Origin: a virus | DNA: 64,000 nt | Direction: 5' to 3' (one strand) | Virus record (IMG/VR): IMGVR_UViG_3300042922_000923 | Coordinates: 32,001 to 96,000 of that record | Part shown: piece after piece, positions 1 through 21,003 of the stretch | Position numbering within the stretch: position 1 is the stretch's first letter | Layout: each line of letters starts with the position of its first letter | The notes under the pieces: model-generated | What the model was told of the DNA's origin: nothing | Seen by the model: only the letters and a program-made list of their open reading frames with translations | Databases searched by the model: none | Position numbers and translations under genes: made by a program

Positions 1-225
1 ACCAAATTGTTTTAAACAAGCTACTGGAGCACTTCCAGCTCCACCAACATTAAAGTGTAATTGAACTTCCTTCCAAAATTCTTCATTGTCTCCTTTTGGT
101 GGAAGAACTCTTATGTTCTGAGCACCTTTTTTAATCTCATAAAATTCGTAATCGCCATTACTAGCCATTCTTTCAGAAATTTCATCTCTTTTAGACTGCA
201 TTTTGTCCATATTCAATTTTCCCAT
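1..225 (-). CDS. Single-stranded DNA-binding protein (gp32-like/Herelleviridae SSB), 5' part only
   Basis: Manual translation MGKLNMDKMQSKRDEISERMASNGDYEFYEIKKGAQNIRVLPPKGDNEEFWKEVQLHFNVGG...; IRVLPP motif; RBS AGAGGGA; downstream of DNA polymerase; runs off window. Confidence 0.75.
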   Translation of the reverse strand, partial: MGKLNMDKMQSKRDEISERMASNGDYEFYEIKKGAQNIRVLPPKGDNEEFWKEVQLHFNVGGAGSAPVACLKQFG

Positions 226-259
226 GACTAAATCCCTCTTTTCTATTATTTTTAACGCG

Positions 260-510
260 TGAGTACTCATTCTAAGTACTTAGATGACTAGTGAATTTGT
301 AGAGTATAGCGTGAATATTTTATAAACATTATGCGTGAGGGAGAATGAGAAGTTTAATTCACTAGTCACCTAAATACTTAGTGCCAAAGCAGCAAAATTA
401 ATAAATAAATTAATTAAAGGAGAATAACATATTATTGGCAAATACATTTAAACGCGATATTTGAAGAAAAAATTTGTAAAAGCTGCTTTGGCAAGAGTGC
501 AAAGCACTCA
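260..510 (-). ncRNA. Structured leader RNA/sRNA upstream of SSB (two abutting long stems with large loops)
   Basis: Inverted repeats 272-297/356-381 (26 bp; both mismatches are G-U on minus strand) and 382-393/482-493 (perfect 12 bp); hairpin 495-509. Confidence 0.6.
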
Positions 511-551
511 ATTAACTAACCAATATTTAGTTTTTTAATTCAATACTTTAA

Positions 552-610
552 CCCCTATATAAATATAAACAACTTAAAATTAAAATTATTTTTTAGTAGT
601 CCACATAGAA
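552..610 (-). promoter_or_regulatory. Phage-specific promoter-like motif copy (TCTAWRTGG-N10-12-ATAATT-N~15-TTTATA)
   Basis: TTCTATGTGG ACTACTAAAAA ATAATT ... TTTATATTTATATAGG. Confidence 0.65.
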
Positions 611-639
611 ACCTTTTTTTCTTTTTTTAAATTTTAGTT

Positions 640-697
640 CCTATATAAATATAAAAGTGAGCTTAATCTAAATTATTAGATCAAACCCACTTAGAAG
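640..697 (-). promoter_or_regulatory. Phage-specific promoter-like motif copy with embedded hairpin/terminator
   Basis: TTCTAAGTGGGTTTGATCTAATAATTTAGATTAAGCTCACTTTTATATTTATATAGG. Confidence 0.65.
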
Positions 698-714
698 AAT
701 TATTTTGTACGTTA

Positions 715-969
715 TTAGTTATGCTGCCTAGAGTATTCTTCTATAATACTTGTCACTTTAGCTTTAGCATCAAGCTCAGTTATGTTATAGTCATATTTTC
801 TATCTTCTAGTACACATAAGGCTTCTATCCAGCTGAGTCCACCACGTTCAGCTAGTCGCTCTATGGTCTGTGCATGGTTTAGTATCGCCTGTTTTTCATG
901 CAATTTTATTAAAGTTAATGGTATGTGTCCCTTTGTCCTTGAATCTAGTATTGGAAATCTATTTTCCAT
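715..969 (-). CDS. Hypothetical phage protein
   Basis: 84 aa ORF, GGGGG RBS, QA..NH.QT.ERLAERGGL motif. Confidence 0.7.
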   Translation of the reverse strand: MENRFPILDSRTKGHIPLTLIKLHEKQAILNHAQTIERLAERGGLSWIEALCVLEDRKYDYNITELDAKAKVTSIIEEYSRQHN

Positions 970-998
970 GTTACTTCCCCCCTTTTTAATATTGTGTA

Positions 999-1169
999 CT
1001 ATTCACTTTTTTCAGTTTCAAAAGAAATTATAGTTTTAAATTTTACTGCAAATTGTCTTTCACATTCTTCACAATCTGTTATAAATTCACCTTCCATGTC
1101 ATTTGGTTCAATATAATCTAACCCATCATGCTCATGTCCACACCAAGGGCATTTAATAGGAAAATCCAT
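999..1169 (-). CDS. Small zinc-ribbon protein (56 aa)
   Basis: Manual translation MDFPIKCPWCGHEHDG...CEECERQF; RBS GAGGTG. Confidence 0.65.
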   Translation of the reverse strand: MDFPIKCPWCGHEHDGLDYIEPNDMEGEFITDCEECERQFAVKFKTIISFETEKSE

Positions 1170-1213
1170 TTCATATCACCTCACTTTTGTTCAAATTTTC
1201 TACATATGACGTA

Positions 1214-1354
1214 TTACTCTTCATCTTTACATCTGTCACAGATATGGTCCCCTTGAATGCCACAGTACTCACAATAAGTCTTCCCACAACATTCACAAGT
1301 ATCTAATTCCTCCATTTCATAGTCACAATATCCACAAAACATATTTTCTTCCAT
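1214..1354 (-). CDS. Small Cys-rich protein (46 aa)
   Basis: Manual translation MEENMFCGYCDYEMEELDTCECCGKTYCEYCGIQGDHICDRCKDEE; RBS GAGGTGAGG. Confidence 0.6.
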   Translation of the reverse strand: MEENMFCGYCDYEMEELDTCECCGKTYCEYCGIQGDHICDRCKDEE

Positions 1355-1406
1355 CTAAACCTCACCTCGAATTATAATTCACCTACTTTAATTTTATAGA
1401 AGATAG

Positions 1407-1562
1407 CTACTTTTCTATTATTAATTCCTTTATTCCATATCCTGTATGGTCTAAAATTACTATGCTTTTACCATCTTTGGTACATAATTCACACATAGGG
1501 AAGTCCTTAAGTATTTCTATTATGTCGCTTATAACCATTTCGCTACAATCTACAGTCTCCAT
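1407..1562 (-). CDS. Hypothetical protein (51 aa)
   Basis: Manual ORF METVDCSEMV..., RBS GGGTGA, fills gap in operon. Confidence 0.4.
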   Translation of the reverse strand: METVDCSEMVISDIIEILKDFPMCELCTKDGKSIVILDHTGYGIKELIIEK

Positions 1563-1845
1563 CCAATTTTTCACCCCTTCCAGAGTATTCTTTCATTTTA
1601 TTATTCCTTAGAAAATCTCTTGCTTTTGTTAAATCATAAATTTCATAGCCTTGTTTTTCAAAGTATTCTAGTCCTATAAGCGAATCAAATCCTTGATAGA
1701 TATAATTACATTTAAACGTGCTGCCCTCAAAGGAGTATTCTTTTTTAATTATTAAATAGTTATGGTTCTGTTCAATAGCTTCTTTAACAATTCTTTCTGT
1801 ATTCTTCATTGTATCTAATGCAATTTGATGCATAATGCTCTCCAT
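1543..1845 (-). CDS. Hypothetical protein
   Basis: 100 aa ORF, AAGGAGG RBS. Confidence 0.7.
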   Translation of the reverse strand: MESIMHQIALDTMKNTERIVKEAIEQNHNYLIIKKEYSFEGSTFKCNYIYQGFDSLIGLEYFEKQGYEIYDLTKARDFLRNNKMKEYSGRGEKLDGDCRL

Positions 1846-1875
1846 CTAATTTTCCTCCTTTTTTAGTATAATGAA

Positions 1876-2064
1876 CTAACCTTCTAAGTCATATTCTTTC
1901 TTTAGTTTCTCTATATCCAATTCAAAATCTGCATAATTATCGCACCAATCATTTTTACATTCAGGATAACCACATTCTCTATTACCATGTTTACATATCG
2001 AAGTACACGCTGTTTCATTTAATAATGCCTTAATTAATAATCGCTCTGTTGTCATATCATTCAT
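1876..2064 (-). CDS. Small Cys-containing hypothetical protein
   Basis: 62 aa ORF with RBS. Confidence 0.6.
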   Translation of the reverse strand: MNDMTTERLLIKALLNETACTSICKHGNRECGYPECKNDWCDNYADFELDIEKLKKEYDLEG

Positions 2065-2147
2065 AATTTTTCTTCACCCTTTTTTCCATTATACTTAAAA
2101 TAACAATGTTAACTTTTTAGGATTTTCATGTAATTTTGTCAACCATC

Positions 2148-2363
2148 CTACAGGTTCCTTCTATGATAATGTCTGTAAATATCAGCTCTGCACTCTGTAC
2201 AAGGGTGCAATTTAGGATCATGATTTTTAGAGCTGCTTAAATGAAGTACTCTTGTGTTATATTCCTTACACACATGATTTTTACTATTATCTTTTAATTT
2301 TAGTTGTTCCTGTTCTGTCATATTAAGATTAATGCAGTTATTACAATCTATACCTTCACCCAT
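2148..2363 (-). CDS. Small Cys-rich hypothetical protein
   Basis: 71 aa, CNNC...C...CTEC; GAGGTG RBS. Confidence 0.6.
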   Translation of the reverse strand: MGEGIDCNNCINLNMTEQEQLKLKDNSKNHVCKEYNTRVLHLSSSKNHDPKLHPCTECRADIYRHYHRRNL

Positions 2364-2386
2364 TGTTTCACCTCAATTCTAATATA

Positions 2387-2590
2387 TTAAAAACACATCA
2401 TAGTTATTGTAATTACTTTTTTACTATTCTTTTTTTTATAGCATTCATAATAATTAAGGTAATCGTGTTCCTGATTTATCTTTCTAAAACCTGCAACGCG
2501 CAATTCATGTACCTTTTTTCTGAAATTTTTCCAAGCGTCTTGATCCCATTCTTTAAAAATAAAATCACCATAAACCATATTTATATGCAT
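2387..2590 (-). CDS. Hypothetical protein
   Basis: 67 aa ORF, GAGGAGG RBS. Confidence 0.6.
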   Translation of the reverse strand: MHINMVYGDFIFKEWDQDAWKNFRKKVHELRVAGFRKINQEHDYLNYYECYKKKNSKKVITITMMCF

Positions 2591-2614
2591 AACATTGACC
2601 TCCTCAAATAAATA

Positions 2615-5359
2615 TTACCAACCTACCTCTTTTTTGTAGTTATCAATCATTTCTGGAGTATAATTTAATTTTTTCTTTAAATAAGAATATGCCTTTTCTT
2701 TCTTCTTTTCTTCTTGTTTCTTGCACCATGCTTTAAAATTAGCAACATTTGTTAAGCCTTGTAGATCCTCAAGCTCCACACCAGCAGCAGAACCATAATC
2801 TTTTCCAAGTTCTAACTCAGCAACTAAAGGTACTTCAACATCAAACCAACCATCAAAAGCAGCTTCCATTATTTCTTTACACTTTGTTGCAACTTCTAAT
2901 AATTCAGGAATATAAATATCAAATACAATAGAGTCATGTACAGTACAAACCATCATAGATTTTTTCTTAGTTTTCTTTAACCAATTAACTATATTAATAA
3001 TAGAAATTAAAGTACAATATGAACCAGTTCCTTGAATAGGAGAGTTCTTAGCTTGTCTTTCAGCATTAGCCTGAACGCCTCTATCTCTAGAATGAATGTT
3101 AGGTAATCTTCTCCTAAATCCAAACATATTTTCAACGTATCCCTTACGTTTACAGTCTGCAACTATATTCTCAAGCCACTTTGCAAGCTCAGGATGCGCC
3201 TTTTTAAAGTTTTCAAGTAGTTCATTTCCTGCTTTTAAAGCTTTCTTTAAAGGATAATTGTAGGGAGGTTTAGTGTATATTTCTCTTCCAAAAGTATTAC
3301 CACCCTTACCATATATACAACCAAATCCCACAGCCTTAGCAGCAGTTCTCATGTCTCCTGTAACTTCTTCTAATGGTACTTTCCATGTATCTGATGCAGT
3401 CTTAGTATGAGCATCCTCACCATTCTTATAAGCTTGTATATAGACCTTATCTCCTGATATAATTCCACCTATTCTTATCTCTAATTGAGAATAGTCCAGA
3501 TTCAGTATGCAGCCAAAGTCTCCAAATCTACTATTAAACATTCCTTTAGGTTCATATTTATACTGGAATAACGTAGGATTATCTACATGTCTAGGCAGTT
3601 GTTGAGCATTAGGATTTATACTTGCAAGTCTACATGTTTCAGTTCCTGTAAGTAGAAAACTAGGGTGTATACAGTCGTTCTTATCCTTCATATCTGGTAT
3701 CTTATCTATGAACATATCTTTAAGTATCTTTAGCTTTCTATACTCAACTAGCTTTTCTGGAATAGGGTGTTGTGTTGCTAATTCCTCTAGTGCCTCCTTA
3801 TTTGTTGATAATTCTCCTTCTTTAGTCTTTATCTCACATTCAAGGCCTAATACTTCATAGAATAGCTCTTTAAGCTGATTAGGAGAACTCCAGTTAAACT
3901 TATATTCTTTATACTTTTGAGTCTTCTTTATAAAGTCAACTTGCTCTTTATTCCTTTGTTTTGCTGGAACAGATTTAAGAAGGGCCTGTCTTTTTGCATA
4001 TAGTTCTCTTTTATCTCTTTCTATCCTAGCTATCTCAGGATAACTATTTAATTCATCAACAACTTTTCTTAATTCAATTTCGTATGCCTTTTGATATATA
4101 GCAACCTTTTCAAGATTCATGTGCATACCCCATTCTTCAACCTGAAGAAGTGCATAAGATGCAGGTATATATATTTCTTCCATGATTCTCTTCCATTTAG
4201 GATTAGCATCAATCTTAGGTTTAAATATGTGTAGTAATCTAAGTGCACAATCAGCATCGGCTGCACCATAAGGTGATAGTATACTCCAAGGAATAAGCTC
4301 ATAGTTACCTCTATCAGCCTCAGGAAGCGTTTCTTTGAATGCATCTAGATCATTATCATATCCTCCCATGTCTGTGAACTCCCAGGCCATATTTTTTAAA
4401 CCTTGAGTACCTTTTCTTTCAGAGATACATAAATAGTGAGCAAGCATTGGATCAAATAAGAAATTAACTACATGAATATCTAAAGTCACTTCCATGTACA
4501 TGATATCGAACATTCCATTTTGAGCTAACTTTTTGATAATAGGATTTTCTAAAAGCTTCTTTAATCGTGCTACTATTCTTAGTATATCTTTATGCTCTAT
4601 TGGAGATTCCCTATGGAATAATGGTATTATAGTTCCTGTCCTTTCTTTATTAGATAAAGATATACATATGACTTTAGCGTTATCTGCATAAGGATTATTA
4701 CCTGTAGATTCAATATCGAAAGATAACCATTCAAGCTCTGGATCTTCTGATGTGCATTCTGTTCCAAATCTATCAAGCTCTGAAAGTGCATCTTCTACAT
4801 TATCTATGACTTTGTATCCAACTTTTGATACCTTTGGCATTCCATTTTCATAGATATCTTTTAAATTATCTAAGTCACCTTGAATTAGAGGTCTGTTTGC
4901 AGGATTACGTGATATAGTAGATGGATGCAGTATTGGAAATACAATGATACCATCGCTCCTAGTAAATGCTTTTCCTCTAAACTTATTAATATTAACTTTT
5001 CCAAGTACATTTTTTAAAGCTGCATCCCCTAAAGGCACTATAATTTCAGGTTTAATAAGACTAATTTCAGTGTTTAAATGAGGCCTACATGCTGTCATAT
5101 TCTTTTGAGTTAATTTTTTATCTTTTATTTCAGGACATTTGATTGCGTATGTGCAATAAATATCATCTTCACTTATTCCTCTTTTTTCAAGTGCTTTTAT
5201 AAGGTTAATAGCTGCTTTTGTTCTAAAAACTACACCATTAACATTTTCGCTTCGCGCTGGTGTATCAGCAACTAGCATTACTTTTGCAGTATAACTTCCA
5301 CTGCCTAATTGACAAGGCATTGGAGCAAATGTTCCTAAGTTACATTTTTTACAGTCCAT
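2615..5359 (-). CDS. polA: Family A DNA polymerase with N-terminal uracil-DNA glycosylase-like domain and 3'-5' exonuclease
   Basis: UDG4-like CKKC..., HPS motif; exo I DIES, exo III YGAAD; pol motifs LDYSQLEIR, RTAAKAVGFGCIYG, NSPIQG, VHDS. Confidence 0.95.
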   Translation of the reverse strand: MDCKKCNLGTFAPMPCQLGSGSYTAKVMLVADTPARSENVNGVVFRTKAAINLIKALEKRGISEDDIYCTYAIKCPEIKDKKLTQKNMTACRPHLNTEISLIKPEIIVPLGDAALKNVLGKVNINKFRGKAFTRSDGIIVFPILHPSTISRNPANRPLIQGDLDNLKDIYENGMPKVSKVGYKVIDNVEDALSELDRFGTECTSEDPELEWLSFDIESTGNNPYADNAKVICISLSNKERTGTIIPLFHRESPIEHKDILRIVARLKKLLENPIIKKLAQNGMFDIMYMEVTLDIHVVNFLFDPMLAHYLCISERKGTQGLKNMAWEFTDMGGYDNDLDAFKETLPEADRGNYELIPWSILSPYGAADADCALRLLHIFKPKIDANPKWKRIMEEIYIPASYALLQVEEWGMHMNLEKVAIYQKAYEIELRKVVDELNSYPEIARIERDKRELYAKRQALLKSVPAKQRNKEQVDFIKKTQKYKEYKFNWSSPNQLKELFYEVLGLECEIKTKEGELSTNKEALEELATQHPIPEKLVEYRKLKILKDMFIDKIPDMKDKNDCIHPSFLLTGTETCRLASINPNAQQLPRHVDNPTLFQYKYEPKGMFNSRFGDFGCILNLDYSQLEIRIGGIISGDKVYIQAYKNGEDAHTKTASDTWKVPLEEVTGDMRTAAKAVGFGCIYGKGGNTFGREIYTKPPYNYPLKKALKAGNELLENFKKAHPELAKWLENIVADCKRKGYVENMFGFRRRLPNIHSRDRGVQANAERQAKNSPIQGTGSYCTLISIINIVNWLKKTKKKSMMVCTVHDSIVFDIYIPELLEVATKCKEIMEAAFDGWFDVEVPLVAELELGKDYGSAAGVELEDLQGLTNVANFKAWCKKQEEKKKEKAYSYLKKKLNYTPEMIDNYKKEVGW

Positions 5360-20842: not shown

Positions 20843-20885
20843 TACCTTTTTAGAAGATATTTCAATTAATTTTAAAGTACTAAAT

Positions 20886-20957
20886 AGAGCGTACACGCTC
20901 TTGAAACTATAAAGGATAAATTACACCTTAAACTAATTTCAAGAGCGTGTACGCTCT
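20886..20957. repeat. Perfect 21-bp inverted repeat, each arm carrying a 16-bp palindrome
   Basis: AGAGCGTACACGCTCTTGAAA 20886-20906 / TTTCAAGAGCGTGTACGCTCT 20937-20957. Confidence 0.85.
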
Positions 20958-21003
20958 GTCTGGTTATCTGTATTCAATATACAGCCTATAATTATTAACT
21001 ATT

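Follow-up and report, generated by a model that had tools for sequence, protein, structure and literature searches.

The synthesis of a phage single-stranded DNA-binding protein (SSB) must follow the amount of single-stranded DNA during replication, and the textbook example of a protein sensing this amount by way of its own mRNA is gene 32 of phage T4. Phage messages are shaped by processing as well, the R-sites of T7 and the N leader of lambda being processing hairpins of RNase III. The T4 operator combines a folded element with a less structured stretch, over 40 nt long, of UUAAA/UAAA words in which the ribosome-binding site lies (PMC535899), and RNase III of Bacillus subtilis is described as cleaving stable stem-loops, with known targets in the SPO1-type phage SP82 (PMC4838370). 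Here we describe a large structured RNA in front of an SSB gene in a 64,000-nt stretch of viral DNA (the window), bases 32001-96000 of a 131,110-bp IMG/VR virus record (IMGVR_UViG_3300042922_000923; 31% GC). That the element is a functional leader RNA of the SSB-sense strand appears very probable. Our best overall explanation, to which we give about even confidence, is a structured 5′ leader of the SSB mRNA that controls SSB synthesis in a manner like T4 gene 32, by RNase III processing, or both. An SSB-gene leader operator as such is already known from T4 gene 32.

The 5′ part of the SSB gene occupies 1..225 on the minus strand, with the start codon at 225..223 according to the open reading frame (ORF) list and translation. 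The frame runs off the start of the window, and the full gene (genome 31377-32225) encodes 282 aa (protein P0002). This protein belongs to the gp32 family, matching Pfam PF08804 gp32 (E 2.6e-14; 54 bits, cut-off 26.8) and PHROG 1192, single strand DNA binding protein (E 1.4e-43). A Shine-Dalgarno (SD) sequence, GAGGGA at 238..233, precedes the likely start codon, and 489 non-coding bases separate SSB from the next gene upstream in its sense, an 84-aa ORF (969..715) that found no family in the Pfam and PHROG searches. Read in the SSB sense, this spacer contains a 6-bp hairpin (P0), a 12-bp helix (PA), a 26-bp helix (PB) and then a 46-nt A/U tract with the ribosome site. P0 (495..509, minus strand) has the form GAGUGC-UUU-GCACUC. 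PA (382..493, minus strand) is a perfect stem (382-393/482-493) around an 88-nt U-rich, G-poor loop (394-481), and abuts PB without a spacer. PB (272..381, minus strand) joins arms 272-297 and 356-381 with two G-U pairs around a 58-nt G-poor, C-rich loop (298-355). The A/U-rich linker (226..271, minus strand) between this big hairpin and the start codon holds UUAAAAAUAAUAG and the SD, and most bases of its A/U part are predicted to be unpaired with a probability of 0.6-0.9.

Much of this anatomy had been proposed in an earlier note made from the letters alone, which placed two stems abutting at 381|382 around loops of 58 and 88 nt; a repeat search returned exactly these coordinates, with arms 92% complementary in PB and 100% in PA. 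The 26-bp stem has its two mismatches at 279/374 and 284/369; the plus strand reads C-A and A-C there, the minus strand G-U and U-G, as the note had held. Its further pairing of 260-266 (TGAGTAC) with 504-510 (GCACTCA), which would close a multi-way junction, is likewise possible with one G-U in the minus sense: the segment GUACUCA (260..266, minus strand) can pair with UGAGUGC (510..504). This closing helix is an alternative to P0 and competes with it, since 504-509 also pairs locally with 495-500 over 6 bp. The short words are in place too, GGAGAAT at 340 and 419 and GCGTGA at 257, 309 and 333. The minus strand has two anti-SD-like runs: the pyrimidine-rich loop-B word UCUCCCUCA (336..344), and the loop-A word UUCUCCUUUAA (414..424), which corresponds to the plus-strand GGAGAAT at 419.

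With G-U pairs allowed the 26-bp hairpin scores 26, compared with best scores of 16-20 in 20 shuffled 131-kb genomes; no hairpin on either strand of the genome scores higher, no inverted repeat there is longer, and no second copy of its arms was found in the genome. Against 100 shuffles per strand, the fold of the 306-nt region reached z = -4.25 (minus strand) and z = -3.48 (plus strand). Of the 146 nt in the two loops only 8 are G, where the background is 18.2% (P = 6.5e-6); loop B has 16 C in 58 nt, and the minus strand of the first 58 kb of the genome holds only five pyrimidine 7-mers with at least five C. By composition, the loops look built to remain single-stranded. The claim that the RNA element is undescribed agrees with the Rfam search, in which no Rfam 15 family was found: window 1-1200, with matches up to E 10 admitted, gave nothing beyond chance scores below threshold, the best being 23.8 bits against a gathering score of 118. 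A 33-codon frame starting from TTG runs through P0 and a PA arm into loop A (window 410-511, minus strand) and has a 32-codon same-frame counterpart (1932-2030) in the relative described below. A coding role for the leader was rejected on this ground: the frame is probably a product of chance, because it has no ribosome site and the residues common to both are confined to the conserved helix arms.

The evidence for covariation comes from the single close relative for which DNA was available, a 3.3-kb metagenome contig (L089) whose SSB is 63% identical. More than 30 closer SSB homologues (P0004-P0035, 36-95% identical) exist at the protein level. A scan of IMG/VR with the single SSB protein gave one distant locus, and scans with the SSB alignment A1 gave 80 loci in IMG/VR, 80 in metagenomes and 6 in GTDB, among which L089 alone exceeds 40% identity. 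In L089, SSB directly follows the DNA polymerase gene, with a 472-nt spacer that repeats the order of two promoter-like motifs, P0 (8 bp, including G-U pairs), PA (13 bp, loop ~76 nt), an abutting PB (24-27 bp, loop ~75 nt) and an A/U tract of ~50 nt with two UUAAA. The closing helix is possible there as well, through a GUACUUA segment with two G-U. A covariation check on the MAFFT alignment of window and L089 found the pairing conserved with compensatory changes. Over the 42 aligned pairs, pairing amounts to 98.8% and falls to 33-42% once the partners are shifted by 1-3 columns; in total, 5 compensatory and 4 wobble-preserving changes stand beside one broken pair. PB keeps all 24 aligned pairs (5 changed on both sides, 2 via G-U, none broken), one of its U-G wobbles being present in both sequences; PA keeps 11 of 12, with one G-C to G-U change and one end pair broken; and P0 shows one G-C to G-U change. 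Inside the otherwise diverged loops the loop-B word UCUCCCUCA is identical (alignments A2 and A5), and loop A of L089 carries CCCCCUUUAA and CACCUCUU at positions other than that of the run in the window.

Upstream of the leader lie two tandem copies of a bipartite word, TTCTA(A/T)GTGG and, after a 31-nt spacer, TTTATATTTATATAGG. These are the two tandem phage promoter motifs that the earlier note had recognized, their promoter role being suggested by position and orientation. The proximal motif (554..610, minus strand) consists of TTCTATGTGG (610..601), the 31-nt spacer and TTTATATTTATATAGG (569..554), and the distal motif (640..696, minus strand) of TTCTAAGTGG (696..687), a spacer of the same length and TTTATATTTATATAGG (655..640). 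In 131 kb the word has six matches at up to two mismatches, with spacers of 31-33 nt in the other copies: three further ones (genome 63714, 78462 and 113921) sit 24-52 nt before start codons, and the sixth is at genome 126950. The word probably marks one class of phage promoters, and since the proximal copy lies ~330 nt from the SSB start, the SSB leader is exceptional in length. A sigma-70-type promoter within the leader was considered as an ordinary alternative, and a search of the leader gave none; nor was a terminator-like site found on the minus strand between 223 and 550. The terminator-like hairpin of the 84-aa ORF (715-969) lies at 655..692 on the minus strand, inside the spacer of the distal motif (1 site found, 0.2 expected), and two copies of the bipartite word carry such a hairpin between their boxes.

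Tandem phage promoters followed by AT-rich DNA are also the arrangement of the T7 primary origin, and transcription-primed origins of the T7/T4 type generally consist of one or more phage promoters and then an AT-rich unwinding region where replication starts. The element could thus act at the level of DNA, as such an origin or as a hairpin of the displaced or lagging single DNA strand, and the tandem motifs followed by DNA of 26-29% GC beside replication genes, together with its rank as the longest inverted repeat of the genome, fit this idea. Every non-Watson-Crick pair of window and L089, however, is a wobble on the SSB-sense strand, and all wobble pairs and one-sided changes favour the transcribed sense strand only, a pattern that fits RNA, or at best one DNA strand. 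The element moreover accompanies the SSB gene in phages with different neighbours. Reading an origin from GC skew was tried and set aside: the cumulative skew has no inflection near genome 32 kb and is uninformative here because it tracks gene orientation. A DNA-level role is hardly likely.

What the earlier note had made of the structure, besides a possible trans-acting anti-SD small RNA, was an SSB autoregulatory switch, whose alternative fold would turn translation off by pairing the SSB SD and start codon with anti-SD runs of the loops (UCCCUC, UCUCC) and with the stem arm UGACUA. The large, non-coding, strand-specific leader structure behind this proposal stands; the specific anti-SD on/off switch is not supported, and we judge it very unlikely. 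The 6-bp complementarities do exist in the window (GAGGGA at 337, its complement at 233; TAGTCA at 363, its complement at 225 and 285), CU-rich runs recur in the loops of all the hairpins seen, the loops of phages Nachito, Goe26 and SP-10 can form 7-bp duplexes with their own SD (-12.5 to -14.5 kcal/mol), and in SPO1 the SD is predicted to be paired with an upstream CU run. Such pairings are nevertheless no more than composition gives, just as the note had cautioned. The loop-B/SD duplex (-11.2 kcal/mol) is equalled by 28% of composition-matched shuffles and 9% of random genome sense segments, and for loop A 90% and 70%, respectively, do as well. Across nine loops in seven phages, the fraction of shuffles with a loop-ribosome site duplex at least as good was 0.10-0.96, below 0.05 in none of the nine. 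In L089 the loop word UCUCCCUCA is retained although the ribosome site there, GAAGAGUGA, is non-complementary, and the UGACUA/UAGUCA pairing at the start codon is absent. The SD region (-18..+3) is also predicted to be open, with a mean unpaired probability of 0.50 in the window, 0.61 in L089 and 0.47-0.71 in six of seven leaders.

The comparison with T4 gene 32, which the note had also drawn, is apt in layout. The T4/RB69 operator likewise lies in the 5′ leader of a gp32-family SSB gene (PMC535899), and in both systems a stable fold is followed directly by at least 40 nt of unfolded A/U-rich RNA with UUAAA words and the ribosome site; the tract measures 46 nt in the window (271..226, with UUAAAAAUAAUAG and the SD) and ~50 nt in L089. 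The pseudoknot is where the comparison fails. The folded part in the window spans ~240 nt, with three hairpins and loops of 58 and 88 nt, and that of the T4/RB69 operator is a pseudoknot of ~28 nt. There is no sequence similarity between them, the host here is probably a Firmicute, and autorepression in the window is putative.

The fold, its strand and conservation, and its place between promoter-like motifs and the SSB gene are thus observed; the following course of events, with SSB binding, repression and cleavage at the leader, is what we infer. Transcripts from the two tandem phage-specific promoters would fold first into P0, PA and PB. Once no single-stranded DNA is left to coat, free SSB would load onto the single-stranded parts of its own leader, namely the G-poor, pyrimidine-rich loops and the A/U tract, the stable helices possibly serving as nucleation site or boundary. 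From there SSB would spread cooperatively over the ribosome site and shut off its own translation. In addition, host RNase III may cut the 26-bp helix and so set the 5′ end and lifetime of the message. That autogenous control by SSB is the main job of the leader is suggested by analogy, and we hold it at or slightly below even confidence.

Among the 69 phage records with a tblastn match, 12 had the region before SSB folded or aligned, and six of these, from three lineages, carry a single long near-perfect hairpin (27-38 bp) directly ahead of the ribosome site of SSB: LysYB1 and LysYB2; Nachito; and SP-10, Goe26 and SBSphiC. These hairpins are unannotated in their records. In a whole-genome hairpin census of five genomes (both strands, G-U allowed), the SSB-leader hairpin ranks first in four, with a score of 26 in this phage (next best 25), 35 in SP-10 (19), 22 in Nachito (19) and 24 in LysYB1 (19); in SPO1 the top match is a poly-U repeat. 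In all nine SSB leaders tested the sense strand gives the more stable fold of the two, by up to 29 kcal/mol, and within the SP-10 group (SP-10, Goe26 and SBSphiC) all seven variable pairs of the main stem are kept through A-U/G-U or C-G/U-G changes, which preserve pairing on the sense strand only. CU-rich runs occur in all nine hairpin loops listed (in seven phages), with a G fraction of 0.03-0.17 (at most 0.13 in eight of nine) and a C fraction of 0.11-0.33. The gene upstream of SSB varies: the window has a small ORF there, L089 the DNA polymerase gene, Nachito a uvsY-like gene and the SP-10 group an unnamed ORF similar in size to that of Nachito. Like the element in the window, the hairpins of the SP-10 group, Nachito and LysYB1/LysYB2 share position and strand before a gp32-like SSB, are the top hairpin in each genome censused, and have G-poor, C/U-rich loops (33-48 nt), a short A/U tract and the ribosome site. 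They differ in having one hairpin instead of three helices, in sequences that cannot be aligned to the window and in that, for most of these phages, the hairpin follows the preceding gene too closely for a promoter to fit in.

The same leaders bear on RNase III. Processing hairpins such as those of SP82 early mRNA (cited in PMC4838370) resemble the element in being long near-perfect helices in untranslated parts of an operon upstream of a cistron; the element differs in its very large G-poor loops, its conserved pyrimidine words and its tie to SSB, and cleavage in it is putative. A helix of about two turns or more, as RNase III cutting requires, is found in both sequences (26 bp in the window, 24-27 bp in L089), so that PB is long enough for the host enzyme. 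The leader might therefore be a processing or stability element in the first place, in which a cut of the 24-38-bp helix separates the SSB message, sets its 5′ end and half-life and maybe releases the top of the hairpin. This would be compatible with the leader control favoured here. Near-perfect helices lie directly upstream of SSB in the window and L089 and also in LysYB1, Nachito and SP-10 (27-38 bp in these three), the hairpin is intercistronic in the SP-10 group, Nachito and LysYB, with 150-180 nt between the upstream gene and SSB, the B. subtilis enzyme cuts stable stem-loops, with known targets in SP82 (PMC4838370), and the best weak Rfam matches of the window are miRNA precursors, that is, plain long hairpins. 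Cleavage alone, however, needs neither G-poor loops, a conserved loop word, PA nor P0, and a search of the phage's own proteins for RNase III or dsRBD domains gave no match. B. subtilis RNase III is described as narrow in specificity (PMC4838370), and helix length alone is therefore no proof of cleavage. As the sole account of the element, processing is unlikely.

Several results weigh against leader control of SSB synthesis, our favoured explanation. The two-row alignment makes the shuffle control weak, 18 of 500 shuffles reaching the observed values, and the exact three-helix fold is supported by two sequences only, the window and L089. A covariance model of PB (R1, built on these two) recovered from 27 sources (183 kb) only its two inputs and their reverse strands, the next match being the other long hairpin of the window (E 0.11). 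Since it finds none of the leaders of SP-10, Nachito, LysYB or L092, the likeness to these is one of architecture, and homology is not demonstrable. L092, whose SSB is 38% identical, has a stem of roughly 24 bp with a CU-rich loop; homology of its loop through the 8-mer CUCACGCA shared with loop B was dismissed as too short to count. It is one of only 7 among 146 distinct upstream regions of distant gp32-like genes with a stem score of at least 16, compared with 1 of 146 coding controls, so that the feature is not universal; this set is mostly aquatic, and 19 of 165 loci had been dropped from it for having less than 260 nt upstream or an identical upstream region. Two of the 12 phage records (SPO1 and SP8) have an irregular extended structure only, the base of which pairs the SD with an upstream CU run, and four (CP-51, Shanette, vB_EalM-132 and S4-1) have no hairpin and a near-zero spacer before SSB. 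The pseudoknot of the T4 operator is absent and no similarity to that operator was found, no dedicated pseudoknot prediction having been run, and a sequence-independent SSB does not need the conserved loop word UCUCCCUCA. Finally, a 1454-nt contig of run X3, ~92% like the window, joins position 295 to 406 and has 100 other letters in place of 110. The replaced span (296-405) covers loop B and one arm each of PB and PA, and the retained partner arms are unchanged; this relative may lack the helices or have swapped them, by module swap or loss.

That 110 nt can be replaced in the centre of so similar a relative is also what might be expected if the repeats had no function, being due to chance or selfish inverted repeats, for example the remnant of a small mobile element, and two DNA patterns yielded no further homologue in IMG/VR: that of the PA stem hit nine loci, all unrelated coding DNA by eye, and that of the PB arm none. 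Such an origin is nonetheless extremely improbable for a hairpin that scores above all 20 shuffled genomes, shows compensatory changes in L089, has no second arm copy in the genome and recurs with the same architecture at the same place in four or more lineages. Among the contigs, a loose end in run X1 belongs to a more distant relative and keeps the PA arm word, its loop A beginning with a CUCCUUU-type run.

Small RNAs of Firmicutes with C-rich loops, of the RsaE/RoxS type, act on G-rich ribosome sites. By this precedent the leader, or a hairpin processed from it, might act in trans, pairing its C/U-rich loop words with G-rich ribosome sites of host or phage mRNAs. Conservation of the loop word UCUCCCUCA within otherwise diverged loops and the CU-rich loops in nine of nine cases would be in keeping with this, as would AUCACCUC in LysYB1, LysYB2 and L092, which resembles the 3′ tail of 16S rRNA. 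Between the structure and the SSB gene there is, however, no terminator or other 3′ end signal, so a separate RNA would need processing, and the fixed position before SSB in unrelated contexts favours action in cis; a trans-acting RNA is highly improbable. A variant of the favoured cis control, which we consider decidedly unlikely in this precise form, would let PB itself register free SSB. When in surplus, SSB would nucleate on the G-poor pyrimidine loops and melt the 26-bp helix, which is rich in A-U and G-U, and the refolded or coated leader would stop translation or change its exposure to RNase III. This mechanism would be common to several SPO1-like lineages and distinct from the pseudoknot operator of T4, and the freed C-rich loop could possibly mimic the ribosomal anti-SD.

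A full-text literature search found no description of an SSB leader structure in SPO1-like phages, although the SPO1 region may be treated in the SPO1 genome paper, which lay outside its coverage. Where T4 has its gene 32 operator, a group of Firmicute-type (SPO1-like) phages has a much larger and very different structure, and the element is a candidate for a new RNA family in Rfam. SP-10, Goe26 and SBSphiC infect B. subtilis, which offers good genetics and viable RNase III mutants; with three carriers in this host, SSB self-regulation outside the T4 group is directly testable.

The phage itself is known from soil. Near-identical DNA was found in soil metagenomes only. The matching sequencing runs were five of soil-metagenome DNA and none of RNA; of the four compared, three have contigs on the stretch and one (X4) has none, two of the three being possibly the source of the DNA. 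In tblastn the most similar isolates are Herelleviridae (Spounavirinae) that infect Bacillus and Lysinibacillus, with 31-39% identity, and with such relatives the host is probably a Firmicute. Window 1-3000 had no blastn match among GenBank phages. The isolates share the gene order polymerase, small ORFs, SSB, recombinase and exonuclease.

In the window, three mini-ORFs of 46-62 aa, rich in CxxC pairs (999-1169, 1214-1354 and 1876-2064, minus strand), lie between the polymerase and SSB genes. Seven related loci gave no gathering-level match in Rfam 15, and in L089 only a group I intron matched: positions 1-1020 of that contig hold a family-A DNA polymerase gene that is split by an RNA resembling a group I intron (RF00028, 585-950; 47.4 bits, below the cut-off of 50; E 2e-10), and the insert carries an HNH endonuclease ORF (51-659; PF01844, 23 bits). 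The DNA polymerase of the window (2615-5359, minus strand, 914 aa) is uninterrupted, with UDG, 3′-5′ exonuclease and DNA_pol_A domains. Two other long hairpins occur in the genome. The second longest, at window 20882-20961, consists of 28-bp arms (3 mismatches) around a 24-nt loop and folds near-equally on both strands (-50.1 and -48.5 kcal/mol). A 26-bp hairpin with a 6-nt loop at genome 13704-13761 on the plus strand, 18 kb before the window, follows a CCTCC-containing stretch.

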